IMG/VR virus record: IMGVR_UViG_2529292835_000021 | Length of the DNA: 8,007 nucleotides | DNA from: a virus | Taxonomy: Duplodnaviria > Heunggongvirae > Uroviricota > Caudoviricetes | Strand: one strand, 5' to 3' | Shown: in pieces, positions 1-8,007 of the stretch | Numbering within the stretch: the stretch's first letter is position 1 | Layout of the letters: every line of letters begins with the position of its first letter | Position numbers and translations under genes: made by a program | Notes under the pieces: model-generated | The model's database searches: none | Told to the model about the DNA's origin: nothing | Seen by the model: only the letters and a program-made list of their open reading frames with translations

Positions 1-18
1 TTTCGTTCCTAGCGCGCA

Positions 19-37
19 GTGCTTTCCCCGCCTCGCC
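19..37. other. cos: cos cohesive-end site, P2/P4 type (19 nt)
   Basis: Plus strand gtgctttccccgcctcgcc is the reverse complement of GGCGAGGCGGGGAAAGCAC, which I recall as the 19-nt cohesive end of P2/P4-family phages. It lies ~165 bp beyond the psu stop, as expected for P4. Confidence 0.7.
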
Positions 38-137
38 CGCCCGCTTTGCGGGGCGGTTTTAATGCAGTTGCACTGACACGCTCAGACCGCGCCGGGAATG
101 GCGCGGTTTGCAGAAAATGAGGCAGGGAAACGCATGC

Positions 138-171
138 AAAGCCATGCACCTTATCGATGCATGGCTTTTTT
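138..171 (+). terminator. Rho-independent terminator-like hairpin (perfect 8-bp stem gccatgca/tgcatggc, 9-nt loop, T6 tail)
   Basis: Stem 141-148 pairs perfectly with 158-165, extended by A138-140 with T166-168, and is followed by tttttt (166-171). The T-run is strong on the plus strand and only TTT on the minus strand, so it mainly stops rightward transcription; it may also act weakly for psu, which ends at 202. Confidence 0.5.
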
Positions 172-201
172 CAGTAAAAACGGGCGGATTTTCGGGGAAT
201 T

Positions 202-774
202 TTACACAGACTGATGTGATGCCAGTTGCGCACTTTTACGCGAAAAAATCATGTTCTGCGCAGGAGTGAATTTTTCACGGCTGTCATCCACCGAAGCCGC
301 GTCAGGCCTGAATCCGATGGCCGTTAAAATGTCGCTATCCTGTGCGGAATAATTAATTTTTTCACCCTTCGCAAGCCAGGACAGGAGGGCTTCACGCAGG
401 GCATCTGTGGCACGCTGTATGGCACAGTTTCGGGCAATGGCCGTCAGCTCACTGTAGCCCATCAGCTCCGGTGCCAGTGCCGCCGCCAGTGCTGTGCCGT
501 GCTGCTGCATAAAATCATTCAGCCGGTCGCGGATGCTGATGTGCTGAACGGCTTCATGCGAACGAATATAACGACCGGCGGCCTGATTCACCTGCCATTT
601 TCTGACTTCGATAATATTGCGTAATTCGTCAAGGCGACTGACGTTTCTGCCTTCTCCTGACAGAAGCCGCAGATATTCCTGTTCGGCCGCAGCCAGCTCA
701 TTTTTGCGTTGCAGCCATGCTGCTTTGTTATTCTGACAGGTGTCAAAGGCCTGCTGTAAGGCTGTGCTTTCCAT
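202..774 (-). CDS. psu: Psu, polarity suppression (anti-Rho) / capsid decoration protein
   Basis: 190-aa ORF; translation (MESTALQQAFDTCQNNKAAWLQRKNELAAAEQEYLRLL...) matches my recollection of P4 Psu (190 aa). Last gene of a sid-delta-psu operon, 73 bp downstream of delta. Confidence 0.88.
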   Translation of the reverse strand: MESTALQQAFDTCQNNKAAWLQRKNELAAAEQEYLRLLSGEGRNVSRLDELRNIIEVRKWQVNQAAGRYIRSHEAVQHISIRDRLNDFMQQHGTALAAALAPELMGYSELTAIARNCAIQRATDALREALLSWLAKGEKINYSAQDSDILTAIGFRPDAASVDDSREKFTPAQNMIFSRKSAQLASHQSV

Positions 775-847
775 CGTTATCTCTTTCTCATCATGCTGAA
801 GAATAAAAATACGGTGTGCGGCGACGGCCGGTGTTAACCGGCAGCCC

Positions 848-1348
848 TCATTCCAGACGCAGCGAATATGATTGTGTTTTTAACCGTACTGGCGGCAGTT
901 CCTGTTTTTCATGCAGGCGTTCTGCCAGTTCGTCCGGTGTGACCGGGCGGACAATGAAGCGGTTGATGGTCTGAAGCGTTTTAAACACCAGACCACATCC
1001 CGGATCCGTGCACACATAAAAACGCTCGGTGACTTCCTGAGACAGACGCCGCGATGTTCTTGACAGTGCAAGGCCTTTACATCTCCGACAACAATATCCG
1101 GTAACAAGCATTCTTTTCGGGCGTTTCATACTGCCGGAGGCTGACGTCAGTGAATCGCGGTATCTCTGTTTGCCTGAAATGTATTCCATTCCTGAATCTT
1201 TACTGTCAGAGAAAAAGCTTTCACTCGCTTCAAATGTCGCAGAGCAATAAATATTCCGGCACTGTGCAATCATTATCTTGGTGCCATCGTCCATGAAATG
1301 TGCGCGACGGGTGTGAGCAACATGTCCACACGACGGGCAGTAAATCAT
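848..1348 (-). CDS. delta: Delta late-gene transcriptional activator (tandem Ogr-like zinc-finger protein)
   Basis: 166-aa ORF with two Ogr-like Cys-rich modules (CPSCGH...CRNIYC and CCRRCKG...CTDPGCG), the duplicated-Ogr architecture and the length of P4 Delta. Its ATG overlaps the sid stop (tcat at 1345-1348, ATGA on the coding strand); GAGGA RBS upstream. Confidence 0.88.
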   Translation of the reverse strand: MIYCPSCGHVAHTRRAHFMDDGTKIMIAQCRNIYCSATFEASESFFSDSKDSGMEYISGKQRYRDSLTSASGSMKRPKRMLVTGYCCRRCKGLALSRTSRRLSQEVTERFYVCTDPGCGLVFKTLQTINRFIVRPVTPDELAERLHEKQELPPVRLKTQSYSLRLE

Positions 1349-2079
1349 GACAGCAGTCCTCTGGCCTTAAGCTCTGCTCCCTGCTGGTCTATTTTGTCCT
1401 GCCACACCTTGCGCTGTGCCGGTGTGCCTGCCACCTCATAATCCATGTGCGGAAGTGTTGCCGCTGACAGTCCGGTCAGCCGGAGAACCGGCTCGCCGCT
1501 GAGGCTGATTTGCATCTGTTTAATTTTCTGTTCCAGCGATGATTTCACCTGCTGCATGACAGCCTTTTCCGGTGCGACGTAGCCCTGATGGCCGGTGGTG
1601 TTGGCGAGCGGATTTTCCTGTACCAGAATGCTCAGATGCATTGCCCGGACAAGCGCCTTACAGGTTTCATTCAGGGCGTGTTCCAGCTCATGCTCTGCAT
1701 ACAGACTCAGAAGGTGATGATGTGCCTTCCGGTAGGCGGTGGCCGTGCTGTCACACGCCCCTTTCAGGCGTTCACGTTCGAAATTCAGCACCACGGCCAG
1801 ATTGTCATATTCCTGTACCAGCTCCCGGCGTGCCACGCGCTCAATGTGGCGCTGTTTCAGCTCGTCGCTCAGGACACCACCGGCTGCACGAAAGGCTGTG
1901 CGCCAGTCGTCAGCGTCGTTTCCGTCGGCCTGCGTCAGCGCATTTTTTTCCTGCTCTGCCCGTTCAATGGCCTTGACGGTCTCATCCATCAGTCGGGCGT
2001 TCTCAAGATGAGCGGCTCTGGCCTTTTCCAGTTGTGCCAGTGCGGGTTGCAGATATTCAGGGATGGTGTTGTCAGACAT
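1345..2079 (-). CDS. sid: Sid, external scaffold / capsid size determination protein
   Basis: 244 aa from ATG at 2077-2079 with AGGAG 7 nt upstream. The 250-aa track ORF starts at an in-frame GTG (2095-2097) that overlaps this RBS, so the ATG is preferred. Length equals P4 Sid; first gene of the operon, downstream of a Delta-type site. Confidence 0.8.
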   Translation of the reverse strand: MSDNTIPEYLQPALAQLEKARAAHLENARLMDETVKAIERAEQEKNALTQADGNDADDWRTAFRAAGGVLSDELKQRHIERVARRELVQEYDNLAVVLNFERERLKGACDSTATAYRKAHHHLLSLYAEHELEHALNETCKALVRAMHLSILVQENPLANTTGHQGYVAPEKAVMQQVKSSLEQKIKQMQISLSGEPVLRLTGLSAATLPHMDYEVAGTPAQRKVWQDKIDQQGAELKARGLLS

Positions 2080-2151
2080 TTTCCGGCTCCTCGTCACTTC
2101 AGATTAAGAAAATTGTGACGTACACCGGACAACAACACGACGCATTGCAGA

Positions 2152-2169
2152 TGTGCCAGTCCTGACACA
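2152..2169 (-). promoter_or_regulatory. Delta/Ogr-type activator site TGT-N12-ACA for the sid promoter (Psid)
   Basis: tgt gccagtcctgac aca at 2152-2169, a dyad TGT-N12-ACA as described for P2/P4 late promoters (centred near -55). Centre at 2160.5 puts the leftward start near 2105, about 26 nt upstream of the sid ATG. Confidence 0.6.
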
Positions 2170-2248
2170 GGAGACTCATCCTCAGACCGGCAAGCCAGGA
2201 AAAGGTCGCAGGAAAAACCGGCTTACTGTTTGTTTTTTTATATTTTAC

Positions 2249-2352
2249 TGTTCACCTCTGTTCACCATAAGAAAAAAGATAAGTAATACAGTAAGTTAAA
2301 GGGTGAACAATCGCAGTAATGACTGTTCACCGTCTGTTCACCACTGTTCACC
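2249..2352. repeat. ori: ori-like iteron cluster: six TGTTCACC octamers (alpha-binding type I iterons)
   Basis: Exact TGTTCACC at 2249-2256, 2259-2266, 2324-2331, 2335-2342, 2345-2352 and inverted GGTGAACA at 2302-2309, spaced 10-11 bp within tandem groups. The same octamer recurs in the crr repeats ~4.7 kb away, and an AT-rich stretch follows (2360-2460). P4 ori and crr are described as carrying this octamer. Confidence 0.7.
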
Positions 2353-2511
2353 CGTTGATGGGCTTTTTGTGCTGTTTACTACTGTTTGTTTTTATTAATT
2401 CGCCGTGAATGAATAAGAAGAAACGATTTGTATTTCACTATAAAAATTACGAATTGCTTTAAGTGGCTTTAAATGACTTTAAGTGGGAATGAACAAAAAA
2501 CACACAGTCAT

Positions 2512-2529
2512 TGTAAGGCTGCCGGAACA
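2512..2529 (+). promoter_or_regulatory. Delta/Ogr-type activator site TGT-N12-ACA for the rightward late promoter (PLL-like)
   Basis: tgt aaggctgccgga aca at 2512-2529. Centre at 2520.5 puts the rightward start near 2575, about 55 nt upstream of the vis ATG. It is divergent from the Psid site on the other side of the iterons. Confidence 0.55.
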
Positions 2530-2631
2530 AATCCCCCCTGTTGCGTCTGCCAAAAATATTCACAAAATAAAGCGCTACCCGAAGCCGGACGGACTTATCC
2601 GGTGCTGTATGGACATTAACGAGGTAGCCCG

Positions 2632-2898
2632 ATGCAAGCTGTTTTTTCTTCCCCGTCTCCCGCCCCTGTGACGCCACTGATGCCGCTGCCGGACATCACG
2701 CAGGAGCGTTTTTTACGTCTGCCGGAAGTGATGCACCTGTGCGGCCTGTCACGCTCGACCATCTATGAACTCATCCGTAAGGGGGAATTTCCGCCGCAGG
2801 TGAGTCTTGGCGGTAAAAATGTGGCCTGGCTGCACTCTGAAGTCACCGCATGGATGGCCGGCCGCATTGCCGGACGCCAACGGGGGTATGACGCATGA
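2632..2898 (+). CDS. vis: AlpA-family small DNA-binding regulator (Vis-like late-promoter regulator / excisionase-like)
   Basis: 88-aa ORF with the AlpA-type HTH core ([44 protein letters not shown]); GAGG RBS 7 nt upstream. First gene after the PLL-like site, as for P4 vis. The true start could be the internal Met (MPLPDITQ...). Confidence 0.65.
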
Positions 2899-3449
2899 TG
2901 ATGCCTGTTCTGCAAAAAGTCCCTTTTTCTGGCTTGCCTTTTTCCGGCATTTGCGGATATAGTTTTTCCGCTGCCGCAAAATCGGCAGCCGGGCGTGAGA
3001 ACCCGAGTATGTTATCGGCGACATATGACGCGCCATGCGTCTTTTTTTGTGTCGTTGCTTCGGCACACCTGTTTTTCTGGCTGTGGTTTTTAAACCGTAG
3101 CCTCTGTCAGATAATGGTGGTCCGGGCGGGGCAGCCTTCGGGCTGGCCGGTTTCCGATAACGCCGGTATTCTCACCCCCGTCTGGGCTATCGCCATCGAG
3201 CGTGAGAACTCCGGCGATAGCGTCATTTACGCTGTTATCGGAGGTTGCCTTATGGCTACGACCCTTACCCCCTCACACCCTGAATTTGTCTTTGTGTTTG
3301 CGGCTGTCCGTCGCGCAGACCGTCATCCCCGTATCTGTATGCTTCGCACCGTCGCCGGTGATGAACGCAGCGCCCGCCGTTCCCTTGTCCGTGACTATGT
3401 GCTCTCCCTTGCTGCCCGTCTGCCGGTGGTGGAGGTGTCCCGTGCGTAA
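2895..3449 (+). CDS. eta: eta-like long ORF, in frame with and containing kil
   Basis: Frame 3 is open from ATG 2895 (atgatgatg, overlapping the vis stop at 2896-2898) to 3449. It spans the PLE-like promoter and immunity-RNA region and ends as the 65-aa kil ORF. This matches the published description of P4 eta as a long ORF starting upstream of PLE with kil as its terminal part. Low-complexity N-terminal translation, so whether it is translated here is unproven. Confidence 0.45.
2934..2963 (+). promoter_or_regulatory. Candidate sigma70 promoter (PLE-like): TTGCCT-N18-TATAGT
   Basis: -35 ttgcct (2934-2939) and -10 tatagt (2958-2963) with 18-bp spacing; predicted start ~2970, about 25 nt upstream of the seqA-like block. 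Located inside eta and upstream of kil, as described for P4 PLE. Confidence 0.4.
3105..3185 (+). ncRNA. cI: Candidate CI-type immunity RNA containing a seqB-like block (boundaries approximate)
   Basis: seqB-like block 3154-3175 (CCGATAAC-gccggta-TTCTCAC) is antiparallel-complementary to an upstream block at 2995-3018 (GTGAGAA-cccgagtat-GTTATCGG) and a downstream block at 3202-3215 (GTGAGAA-ct-CCGGC). A 10-nt direct repeat gcgtgagaac occurs at 2993-3002 and 3200-3209. A GC hairpin with TTCG loop (cagcc-ttcg-ggctg, ~3131-3143) precedes seqB. Ends of the RNA cannot be set from sequence. Confidence 0.4.
3252..3449 (+). CDS. kil: Kil-like small protein (65 aa; Icd-like cell-division inhibitor family)
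   Basis: ATG at 3252 with GGAGG 7 nt upstream gives exactly 65 aa ([26 protein letters not shown]...), the length reported for P4 Kil. It is the first ORF with a strong RBS downstream of the PLE-like promoter and is nested in the eta frame. Confidence 0.6.
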
Positions 3450-3729
3450 TAAAAAAGCCCCTCAGACCGTCTCAGCACGTCATGACGCCCGTGAACACCT
3501 CAGCATTGAGGCTTACCATAAGCTCAACCGCGCCAGCGCCGTATCCCGGTTTGTTGGGGGTGATTTGATTCACCGTGAACTCTCCGGCCTGCATCAGCTC
3601 TACATTCCGCATATTTTCAGCTACCTGAATGAAGATATTGATTTTGTGCTGAATGAGCTGAAAGCCAAAGGCCTGTGCCGCGATTTTCTCGCCCAGCAGA
3701 AAGACCGGGGAGACAGGACGCATGTTTGA
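3442..3729 (+). CDS. epsilon: Epsilon-like protein (P4 E, antirepressor of helper prophage), 95 aa from a GTG start
   Basis: Frame-1 ORF; the first plausible start is GTG 3442 with GGAGG (3431-3435) 6 nt upstream, giving 95 aa. It overlaps the kil stop by 8 nt and its stop overlaps the orf151 start (atgtttga at 3722-3729). Position matches P4 epsilon; the name rests on synteny and my recollection of size. Confidence 0.55.
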
Positions 3730-4177
3730 TTTTCCCCAGCCCGGTGAGATTTACCGTTCTGCCGGTTTTCCCGATGTGGCCGTGGTCGGCATTCTGGAAG
3801 ACGGTATTCCGTGGGAAATGCCGTACCGCTGCCCGGACATTGTCTGGAACCCGTACCGCCGTAAATTCAGTATCCTTGTACGTATCCTCGCTGACGGGCG
3901 CACCACAGACATCCCGCTGGGGCGTTTTCTGCGGGAATTTACCTGTGACCGTCCTGACCTGTTTAAACGCAGCCCCGTAAACCGGCATGCGGTACTGAAA
4001 GAAATGGCCGGAGACCCGGAATTACAGAAATGGCGGGAGAAATATCTGGATATTTACCCGCAGGACACTGTTCCGGCCAGCCGGGCGGCACCGGTGGCGC
4101 GGGAATGGCGGGAAATTCCCCGCACGGAGCCTGACCCGGAAATCACCCCGGATAACAGTTACCGCAATTATCTGTAA
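3722..4177 (+). CDS. Conserved P4-family protein of unknown function (orf151 equivalent)
   Basis: 151-aa ORF, coupled to epsilon by an 8-nt overlap; same length and position as P4 orf151, between epsilon and cnr. Confidence 0.6.
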   Translation: MFDFPQPGEIYRSAGFPDVAVVGILEDGIPWEMPYRCPDIVWNPYRRKFSILVRILADGRTTDIPLGRFLREFTCDRPDLFKRSPVNRHAVLKEMAGDPELQKWREKYLDIYPQDTVPASRAAPVAREWREIPRTEPDPEITPDNSYRNYL

Positions 4178-4312
4178 TTAAAAAACGACACCCGAAAAAT
4201 TAAATGTGCGTATTCGCGCAGGGATACGCACGTCTTCAGGAGACGCAGATATGCCTTATCAGTTAATGCAACCGGCACGGAATGCAGTCATCTGTCACAG
4301 GGAGGAAAACAA

Positions 4313-4633
4313 ATGAAAACACCCTTACCGCCCGTCTTACGCGCTGCCCTTTACCGTCGCGCTGTCGCCTGTGCCTGGCTGACCGTGTGCGAACGTCAGC
4401 ACCGCTACCCGCATCTCACCCTTGAATCACTGGAGGCGGCCATCGCCGCTGAGCTGGAGGGCTTTTATCTGCGCCAGCACGGTGAGGAAAAAGGGCGTCA
4501 GATAGCCTGTGCCCTGCTGGAAGATTTAATGGAATCCGGCTCCCTGAAGGCCGCGCCGTCGCTGTCCTTTCTCGGGCTGGTTGTGATGGATGAACTCTGT
4601 GCCCGTCACATAAAAGCGCCGGTACTGCACTGA
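4313..4633 (+). CDS. cnr: Cnr-like copy-number regulator of alpha-dependent replication (orf106 equivalent)
   Basis: 106-aa ORF immediately upstream of alpha (stop 4633, alpha ATG 4648), with GGAGG upstream. Length and position match P4 cnr. Confidence 0.65.
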
Positions 4634-4647
4634 AGGAGAACAACACC

Positions 4648-6979
4648 ATGAAAATGAACGTAACCGCCACCGTCAGCCATGCGCTCGGCCACTGGCCGCG
4701 TATTCTCCCGGCGCTGGGGATTCAGGTGCTGAAAAACCGTCATCAGCCCTGTCCGGTCTGTGGCGGGAGTGACCGCTTCCGTTTTGATGACAGGGAGGGG
4801 CGCGGCACCTGGTACTGCAATCAGTGTGGTGCCGGTGACGGCCTGAAACTGGTTGAAAAGGTGTTTGGTGTTTCCCCGTCCGACGCGGCCGCAAAGGTGG
4901 CTGCCGTGACCGGCAGCCTGCCACCGGCTGACCCGGCAGTGACGACCGCCGCCGTTGCTGAAACAGACGCTGCCCGGAAGAACGCCGCCGCACTGGCACA
5001 AACCCTGATGGCGAAAACCTGTCCCGGAACCGGTAACGCCTACCTGACCCGCAAGGGCTTTCCCGGCCGGGAATGCCGGATGCTGACCGGCACACACAGA
5101 GCCGGTGGCGTGAGCTGGCGCGCCGGTGACCTTGTGGTGCCACTGTATGACGACAGCGGCGAACTGGTTAACCTTCAGTTAATCAGTGCTGACGGCCGTA
5201 AGCGCACCCTGAAAGGCGGACAGGTCAGGGGCACCTGTCACACCTTGAAGGACAGAATCAGGCCGGAAAACGTCTGTGGATAGCGGAGGGATACGCGACC
5301 GCACTTACCGTCATCACCTGACCGGTGAAACGGTGATGGTGGCGCTTTCTTCCGTGAACCTCCTTTCTCTGGCCAGCCTTGCCCGGCAGAAGCATCCGGC
5401 CTGTCAGATTGTCCTTGCTGCTGACCGTGACCTCAGCGGTGACGGCCAGAAAAAAGCCGCCGCAGCCGCAGATGCGTGTGAGGGCGTTGTTGCCCTGCCG
5501 CCGGTCTTCGGTGACTGGAATGATGCCTTCACGCAGTACGGCGGGGAGGCCACCCGTAAGGCCATTTACGATGCCATCCGGCCACCGGCTGAAAGCCCGT
5601 TCGACACCATGAGCGAAGCAGAGTTTTCCGCCATGAGTACCAGCGAAAAGGCCATGCGTATCTATGAGCATTACGGCGAGGCGCTCGCGGTCGATGCCAA
5701 CGGCCAGCTTCTGTCCCGTTATGAAAATGGTGTCTGGAAGGTGCTGCCGCCACAGGACTTTGCCCGGGATGTGGCCGGGCTGTTTCAGCGTCTGCGCGCG
5801 CCGTTCTCCTCCGGGAAGGTGGCCTCCGTGGTGGACACCCTGAAGCTGATTATTCCGCAGCAGGAAGCCCCCTCCCGCCGCCTGATTGGCTTTCGTAACG
5901 GCGTGCTCGACACGCAGAACGGCACGTTCCACCCGCACAGTCCGTCACACTGGATGCGCACCCTGTGCGATGTGGATTTCACCCCGCCGGTGGAAGGGGA
6001 AACGCTGGAAACCCACGCCCCCGCGTTCTGGCGCTGGCTTGACCGTGCCGCCGGTGGCCGTGCGGAAAAACGCGACGTGATTCTGGCCGCACTGTTTATG
6101 GTGCTGGCAAACCGCTACGACTGGCAGCTCTTTCTGGAGGTGACCGGTCCCGGCGGCAGCGGCAAAAGTATCATGGCCGAAATCGCCACCCTGCTGGCCG
6201 GGGAGGATAACGCCACGTCGGCCACCATCGAGACGCTGGAATCCCCGCGTGAACGTGCCGCGTTAACTGGCTTCTCACTGATACGCCTGCCGGACCAGGA
6301 AAAATGGAGCGGCGACGGAGCCGGACTCAAGGCCATCACCGGCGGCGATGCGGTGTCCGTTGACCCGAAATACCGGGATGCGTACTCCACGCATATCCCG
6401 GCGGTGATTCTGGCCGTCAACAATAACCCGATGCGCTTCACCGACCGCAGCGGCGGCGTGTCACGCCGGCGGGTGATTATTCACTTCCCGGAACAGATAG
6501 CCCCGCAGGAGCGCGACCCGCAGCTTAAAGACAAAATCACCCGCGAGCTGGCAGTCATCGTGCGTCACCTGATGCAGAAGTTCAGCGACCCGATGCTCGC
6601 CCGGTCACTGCTTCAGTCCCAGCAGAACTCAGACGAGGCACTGAACATCAAACGGGATGCCGACCCGACGTTTGATTTTATCGGCTATCTGGAAACCCTG
6701 CCGCAGACCAGCGGCATGTATATGGGGAACGCCAGTATCATCCCGCGCAATTACCGTAAATACCTCTATCACGCCTATCTGGCCTACATGGAGGCAAACG
6801 GCTACCGGAATGTACTCAGTCTGAAAATGTTCGGGCTGGGGCTGCCGGTGATGCTGAAGGAATACGGACTGAATTACGAGAAGCGCCATACCAAACAGGG
6901 GATACAGACCAACCTGACGCTGAAAGAGGAAAGCTACGGCGACTGGCTGCCAAAATGTGACGACCCTGCAACAACCTGA
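4648..6979 (+). pseudogene. alpha: alpha primase-helicase (Zn-binding primase N-term, TOPRIM, D5_N, P-loop helicase, C-terminal DNA-binding), frame-disrupted by two 1-nt frame changes
   Basis: N-terminal 211-aa ORF (4648-5283, frame 1) has the CPVCGG...CNQCG zinc motif. The C-terminal 567-aa ORF (5276-6979, frame 2) has the TOPRIM DxD (VLAADRDLSGDG) and Walker A (GPGGSGKS). The TOPRIM glutamate motif AEGYATALTV is encoded only in frame 3 (5283-5312). Stitching 200 + 22 + 555 codons gives 777 aa, the length I recall for P4 alpha. AAGGAG RBS before ATG 4648. Confidence 0.85.
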
Positions 6980-6995
6980 CCATCATGACTCATCT

Positions 6996-7020
6996 GACCG
7001 GCATCTGCAGGTCTTTTTTT
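6996..7020 (+). terminator. Rho-independent terminator-like hairpin after alpha
   Basis: gaccggc-atct-gcaggtc (6996-7013; 7 positions, one G-A mismatch) followed directly by T7 (7014-7020), 17 nt after the alpha stop codon. Confidence 0.45.
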
Positions 7021-7036
7021 ATCCCTGAATTCCCCG

Positions 7037-7336
7037 AAGGTGAACAATCCACTGTTCACCCTTCACCGTATATTCACCCGTTATCACACTGAAATTAAAA
7101 GAGAAAAATGAAAGGTGAACAGTGTGAACAATCAAATCAAAAAAAACTTTTTTTCTCCCTGTGTGATTTCAGTACGGGGGATTAATCACCGGTATGAGTC
7201 ACACCGGCAGAATGCCGGAGGTGAAGAATCGAATGTTCACCCTTCACCCATTATTCACCACCTATCAAACTGAAATAAAAGGAGAAAACAGAAAGGTGAA
7301 CAGTGTGAACAGTTCTTTCGAAAAAAAACTTTTTTC
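7037..7336. repeat. crr: crr-like cis replication region: two ~119-bp direct repeats with 181-bp period, each carrying TGTTCACC/GGTGAACA iterons
   Basis: Unit A 7037-7155 and unit B 7218-7336 align along their length with scattered mismatches, separated by a 62-bp spacer. Each has GGTGAACA/TGTTCACC copies (A: 7039-7046, 7053-7060, 7114-7121; B: 7234-7241, 7295-7302) plus degenerate variants and ends in an A8-C-T6/7 tract. Matches the P4 crr description (two ~120-bp repeats ~60 bp apart). Confidence 0.8.
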
Positions 7337-7596
7337 TTATTTTTAATTGTGCGAAAAACAAGCGATGCGCGCAGTGTGTATAGATATGTGTATAGTTATA
7401 TTTTTTGAATATAATAATCTATTATAAATCAATGCGTTAACTTGCAATATTCATTCCTATTATCGCACCATTAAAATCAAAGAGTTACCCCATATTTAAA
7501 TACACCACGTTTCCTCCTGTGCCGCATTTGTGCCATTGTAACCTTGGCAATTCATCAAAATACTGTTCTGACATCAGGCAGTGCAGGTGCAGCTAT

Positions 7597-8007
7597 TTAA
7601 ACCAATTGCTGCCGCCATTCTTTGACGTAGTCAATCAGGGCGCGGAGCTTTGGTGCAATATTGCGACGCTGTGGGAAATACAGATAGAAGCCCGGAAATT
7701 GTGGAAGAAAGTCATCAAGCAGCGATACAAGCTTACCGCTTTCAATATATGGCCTGAAAGTTTCCTGAGTGGCAATTGTTATTCCTCCGCCGGCAAGAGC
7801 CAGCCTCAACATCAGACGCAGATCATTAGTCGTAATCTGCGGTTCGATCGCAAGGTCGAAAGTTCTCCCGTTTTCTTCAAATGGCCAGCGATAAGGCGCA
7901 ACCTCCGGGGACTGACGCCAGCCGATACACTTATGGGTATTTCCCCCGGAGGCGAGAAAGCGCTCTCCACGCCCGGCCGCAAGGATCAGGACGACGGGGG
8001 CAGGCAT
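7597..8007 (-). CDS. LysR-family transcriptional regulator, C-terminal effector-binding domain (partial; N-terminal HTH beyond window edge)
   Basis: Translation has typical LysR C-terminal features (RLMLRLALAGGGITIATQETF...GKLVSLLDDF...PGFYLYFPQRRNIAPKLRALIDYV); stop at 7597-7599. The ATG at the window edge is probably a coincidence, since LysR proteins are ~300 aa. Convergent with alpha and outside the P4-like block. Confidence 0.8.
   Translation of the reverse strand: MPAPVVLILAAGRGERFLASGGNTHKCIGWRQSPEVAPYRWPFEENGRTFDLAIEPQITTNDLRLMLRLALAGGGITIATQETFRPYIESGKLVSLLDDFLPQFPGFYLYFPQRRNIAPKLRALIDYVKEWRQQLV

Follow-up and report, generated by a model that had tools for sequence, protein, structure and literature searches.

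The closest described relative of the gene examined here is the alpha gene of P4, whose product (gpalpha; P4p06 in NC_001609) is a 777-aa primase-helicase with a zinc ribbon, a TOPRIM domain carrying an EGYATA motif, and the domains D5_N, DUF5906, and Pox_D5. The window, by which we mean the whole 8,007-nt stretch of DNA that was analyzed (IMG/VR record IMGVR_UViG_2529292835_000021), holds an alpha-type gene that encodes the same set of domains and sits in the same gene order as in P4, namely psu-delta-sid / ORF88-cI region-epsilon-ORF151-ORF106-alpha. There are two departures from P4. Instead of the P4 genes int-cII-beta-gop, the surroundings are those of a chromosomal prophage, with other integrases and other cargo (selC with SIR2, thrW with HEPN). 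In addition, the alpha gene as deposited (positions 4648 to 6979, plus strand) comprises 2332 nt, 2 nt fewer than its 2334-nt counterparts in P4 and in the two prophage copies of Escherichia coli strain 504237, and is split into ORFs of 211 and 567 aa.

A second point of reference comes from genome assembly. A collapsed repeat usually results in a contig break or in a wrong allele in the consensus. The present locus resembles known collapsed-repeat errors in its setting, a ~7-kb repeat of ~97-98% identity that is far longer than 100-bp reads and 300-bp inserts, and in its features, with one contig running through the repeat, flanks of two loci, alternating alleles, and errors at variant sites. 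It differs from the usual outcome in that two of the variant sites appear as single-base deletions, which together imitate a double frameshift. As detailed in the following, we think it very probable that the two frame changes in alpha are consensus errors of a collapsed repeat rather than the mark of a pseudogene or of recoding.

A preliminary description of this DNA had read alpha as running in frame 1 from 4648 to a stop at 5281-5283, passing through a TOPRIM motif present in frame 3 only, and continuing in frame 2 to 6979. Translation confirms this layout. The N-terminal ORF that results from the first missing base (4648 to 5283, plus strand; EMW80847.1) encodes 211 aa, with its last 13 codons out of frame and a TAG at 5281-5283 as its end. 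Frame 3, the only one to contain the TOPRIM motif, is open from 5202 to 5318 and no further, with stops on either side (5199 and 5319); it reads ...GKRLWIAEGYATALTVIT up to the second of these stops. Frame 2 remains open between 5249 and its stop at 6977-6979; the C-terminal ORF within it (5276 to 6979, plus strand) has a GTG start and encodes 567 aa, comprising the remainder of TOPRIM, D5_N, the DUF5906 region, in whose translation a P-loop-type motif (GPGGSGKS) is found, and the C-terminal Pox_D5 domain.

The same description had postulated two -1 events, one within 5202-5283 and the other within 5310-5321. Alignment of positions 5180-5350 with P4 (NC_001609) and with an E. coli prophage places both events inside these intervals, two absent bases being the sole differences along the aligned stretch. 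The first absent base belongs between A5242 and C5243 (5242 to 5243, plus strand; CACA[C]CCTTG); here, the two copies of 504237 read C at selC (ACC, Thr199) and T at thrW (ATC, Ile199). The second belongs between T5311 and C5312 (5311 to 5312, plus strand; CCGT[A]CATC), a position occupied by A at selC (GTA, Val) and by G at thrW (GTG, Val). The dropouts at 5242 and 5311 are 69 nt apart, and restoring both bases yields a gene of 2334 nt, that is, the 777 codons anticipated earlier plus a stop codon. It had also been stated that neither site is a homopolymer. This applies to the second site; the first, when set against the selC-type allele, is a CCC-to-CC change in a short homopolymer. A random homopolymer error was nevertheless rejected as the cause, only the first site touching a C-run and both sites coinciding with variants between paralogous copies.

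The parallel statement that neither site carries a slippery motif was borne out, and this bears on the idea of programmed recoding, according to which a ribosome shifting +1 twice would produce full-length alpha from the deposited sequence. That the three frames jointly encode the whole protein is the one point in favor of such a mechanism, and there is nothing else. The slippery or shifty motif that would mark frameshifting is lacking at either site, P4 and every listed prophage homologue encode alpha in a single frame, and only one draft assembly shows this arrangement. We regard the chance of recoding as practically nil.

As judged by its sequence, the repaired gene is an ordinary member of the P4 alpha family, and a very close one. 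At the DNA level, alpha shares 98.7% identity with its P4 counterpart over its full length and 99.4% with the selC copy of 504237, and the repaired 777-aa product departs from P4 alpha at 6 residues, which together with the P4-type synteny is what one expects of a family member. The zinc ribbon (Zn_Ribbon_Prim, PF08273), itself typical of the family, is recognized at residues 30-66 (E = 1.9e-18) and is also detected on the 211-aa fragment. It is followed in the repaired product by Toprim_3 at residues 210-299 (E = 1.4e-12), which includes WIAEGYATALTV and thereby the EGYATA motif, and by D5_N, DUF5906, and Pox_D5. A single 777-codon frame that includes the latter three domains exists only once both bases are restored; the frame as deposited is broken.

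The window is an exact substring of contig AQEA01000008.1 in the draft assembly GCA_000354775.2 of E. coli 2747800. This strain, a clinical isolate of ETEC (ST443, CS5+CS6) obtained in Bangladesh in 2007, was sequenced as 100-bp Illumina HiSeq 2000 reads (SRR446741) and assembled with Celera Assembler (PMC5469772). A sister study from the same institute, published in mBio and dealing with multiple ETEC isolates per patient, also combined HiSeq with Celera Assembler, using 300-bp inserts at an average coverage of >200x (PMC4462620).

In exact protein look-ups against the genome collection, the 211-aa and 567-aa products were each found on one contig only. A 321-bp stretch around the dropouts was matched in 1005 of 5426 complete E. 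coli genomes; none of the matches listed lacks either base, and the best of them are 99.4% identical and span 323 nt. Similarly, a 30-mer across the first dropout had no match in the viral and metagenome collections or among species-representative genomes. Frameshifts that are unique to a draft assembly might suggest that two errors of sequencing or base calling, random and independent of each other, occurred in a correctly assembled single prophage. Illumina reads, however, rarely give indel errors outside long homopolymers, and the average coverage of the sister study speaks against errors of this sort, which moreover would leave the chimeric flanks, the mosaic of alleles, and the location of the gaps at paralog-variable sites, all described below, without an explanation. 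We therefore consider random errors very unlikely. The preliminary description had named two sequencing errors as one of its two options, and of this proposal the notion of error as such is favored, with the qualification that the cause would be repeat collapse and not random base-calling in a correct element.

Collapse of a repeat is suggested by what surrounds the window. On contig AQEA01000008.1, we considered a 21.7-kb extension of the locus (L005), of which the window occupies positions 4726-12732. The left part, L005:1-4900, with yicJ, tRNA-Sec, int, and SIR2, is 100.0% identical to positions 4494620-4499519 (plus strand) of the 504237 chromosome (CP025862), and the right part, L005:12100-21704, with paoDCBA and ecp, is 100.0% identical to positions 656147-665751 (plus strand) of the same chromosome. 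The contig thus has a selC flank on its left and a thrW flank on its right, in the same orientation, and flanks of two different loci are what a collapsed repeat would be expected to show. In 504237, each of these two loci harbors a P4-like satellite prophage, at ~4.495-4.507 Mb (selC) and ~0.646-0.657 Mb (thrW), respectively. The two prophages lie >1 Mb apart in direct orientation, were assembled separately, and are each annotated with an intact 2334-nt alpha gene.

Within the window, positions 1 to 7250 are common to both P4-like prophages, which are ~97-98% identical to each other along this stretch, and positions 7251 to 8007, comprising the thrW-side right end and the host flank, match the thrW locus of 504237 only. 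The two prophages can also be told apart by the cargo between integrase and psu, which is a 906-aa SIR2_2 protein at selC (L005:2005-4725) and a 461-aa HEPN-domain protein at thrW (L003:1604-2989). We take this int-psu position to be a variable slot of P4-like satellites in which anti-phage defense genes tend to sit. On the thrW side, a 136-aa ORF with a LysR_substrate domain (7597 to 8007, minus strand) adjoins the right end of the prophage. In the RefSeq annotation of 504237, this ORF is a LysR pseudogene truncated at its N terminus, and it is probably the remnant of a host gene beside the boundary of the thrW island.

Contig AQEA01000008.1 is almost certainly misjoined through the P4-like repeat. 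Given the direct orientation of the two parent prophages, a genuine junction with selC on the left and thrW on the right would require the loss of >1 Mb of chromosome. For this reason, a real recombinant hybrid element was rejected; besides the deletion that its junction would entail, 18 allele blocks without a private change are unlike the product of a single crossover.

The allele blocks were defined by a three-way alignment of window positions 1-6975 with the selC and thrW copies of 504237, which served as a two-copy reference and proxy for 2747800, such that the mosaic argument depends on this proxy. Over these positions, 209 substitution sites separate the two 504237 copies. At these sites, the window carries the selC allele in 137 cases and the thrW allele in 70 cases, with 0 private substitutions; in other words, 207 of 207 called variable sites match one or the other copy, in 18 alternating blocks. 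A mosaic that lacks private variants is the pattern to be expected of a collapsed repeat. The sole anomalies in this mosaic are the two missing bases, and both fall exactly on variable sites (C/T and A/G), again as expected if paralogous copies were merged. Furthermore, the two sites are consecutive in the list of variable sites and coincide with a switch from thrW to selC alleles: the block directly upstream (4872 to 5020, plus strand) has the thrW allele at 8/8 variable sites, and the block directly downstream (5359 to 5919, plus strand) has the selC allele at 7/7. Alpha contains 31 variable sites in 2334 nt, and the chance of both gaps falling on such sites is 1.7e-4, or 5e-4 when a 3-nt ambiguity in placing the first gap is allowed for.

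Two genuine prophages served as controls. The first, a selC copy taken from an unrelated complete genome, had 245 selC alleles, 1 thrW allele, and 0 private ones and was thus not a mosaic. The real thrW copy of strain ETEC-2265, in turn, had 28 private sites, which indicates that real divergence leaves private changes. Since this ETEC-2265 copy differs from the thrW copy of 504237, it is also the reason why we consider 504237 the appropriate proxy. Taking ETEC-2265 and a fox isolate as the parent copies was tried and rejected; this pair left 10 apparent private sites, the two gaps included.

These data also speak to the other option of the preliminary description, that is, a genuinely inactivated primase in an element that could not replicate by itself. 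Here, two real 1-nt deletions in one prophage of 2747800 would truncate alpha before TOPRIM. The deposited sequence does have both deletions and the premature TAG, the first site can be read as CCC-to-CC slippage, and prophage decay is common. However, the contig that carries the deletions is a chimera of two loci, the real counterpart of which would have cost >1 Mb of chromosome; both deletions lie on paralog-variable sites (p about 2-5e-4); zero private substitutions in ~7 kb is not the picture of a decaying element; and no deletion of either base occurs among the matches listed from the 1005 complete genomes. A draft from the same series, p0305293.8, has like dropouts, one of them at the identical site (see below). 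With the gaps falling on paralog variants in a chimeric contig, genuine inactivation finds no support, and we give this reading only a slight chance. A variant of it, a real knockout by two clustered 1-nt deletions, for instance through error-prone heteroduplex repair during gene conversion between satellites, strikes us as highly improbable. If it were true, the mutant satellite would need the alpha of its sister satellite in trans to replicate.

Mosaicism is not confined to alpha. In the P4 immunity region, which includes the C4/CI RNA and its targets, blocks are of selC type at 2997-3050, of thrW type at 3055-3138, and again of selC type at 3156-3320; Rfam matches in this region are c4-a1b1 (2957-3009), isrK (2970-3047), and C4 (3110-3197). 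Because the mosaic switches from selC to thrW and back here, both the RNA region and the 184-aa Phage_ASH ORF (2895-3449, plus strand) are chimeric and unlike either parent copy. The selC parent carries an Icd-like gene of 196 aa, and in the thrW parent there are an ash pseudogene and an Icd-like ORF of 65 aa; the 184-aa ORF occurs in neither. The earlier assertion that all other genes of the element are intact and of canonical P4 length thus needs qualifying, given that the window combines two elements in a mosaic and contains at least one chimeric ORF.

Scanning viral contigs with a 26-mer across the second dropout returned one match, IMG/VR UViG_2537561692_000012, which exact protein look-ups assigned to the draft genome of E. 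coli p0305293.8 (ENG73600-ENG73602). The element in this draft (~3890-10900) has a different left end, with a P4-type int, cII, and beta. In the repeat that it shares with the window, we counted nine deletions of one base each and no insertions. Five of these deletions hit positions at which the two 504237 copies differ (binomial p = 2e-6), among them the 5311|5312 site. Alpha in this draft is split into three ORFs, of 173, 267, and 300 aa. In the sibling isolate p0305293.9, there is a fragment of another length, 206 aa. Dropping of bases where paralogous copies differ is hence a recurrent feature of these assemblies.

Our preferred explanation, a consensus artifact of a collapsed repeat, builds on the observed chimeric flanks, the mosaic without private sites, the dropouts on variable sites, and their recurrence in a sister draft. 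According to this model, 2747800 would carry two P4-like satellite prophages, one at selC (int, SIR2) and one at thrW (int, HEPN); that these are the same two copies as in 504237 is something we infer. Celera Assembler would have been unable to separate the ~7-kb copies, since a repeat of this length at ~97-98% identity is not resolvable with 100-bp reads and 300-bp inserts, and would have laid the reads of both copies into a single contig that enters via the left flank of selC and exits via the right flank of thrW. At each variable site, the consensus would then have taken the allele of one copy, giving rise to the alternating mosaic, while at two neighboring variable sites, where the mosaic switches from thrW to selC, no base would have been emitted. 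As to how a base might be lost, we suggest that the assembler represented a C/T or A/G mismatch by two gap columns, each half-occupied, and that both columns were then voted out. Two points count against the artifact: only 2 of the 209 variable sites were dropped, and the CCC-to-CC change at the first site belongs to a class of real slippage mutations. If the model is right, each resident copy most likely possesses an intact 777-codon alpha gene.

An alpha query against the 504237 chromosome hit three places, pointing to a third P4-like alpha copy in addition to those at selC and thrW. No base of the window requires this third copy.

Taken as a whole, the frameshift in alpha is probably not a real feature, and there would be no biological finding at this site. 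EMW80847.1 (211 aa) and its 567-aa partner, as well as ENG73600-ENG73602 of p0305293.8, are then likely to be artifactual fragments. Contig AQEA01000008.1 would falsely join selC to the pao region, and the P4-like "element" of the window, being a mosaic, would not exist in this form. For 2013-era drafts made with Celera Assembler from HiSeq reads, single-base dropouts should be expected wherever resident paralogous copies differ, which may serve as a warning both for counts of degraded versus functional satellites and for studies of the psu-int cargo of P4-like elements that draw on such drafts.
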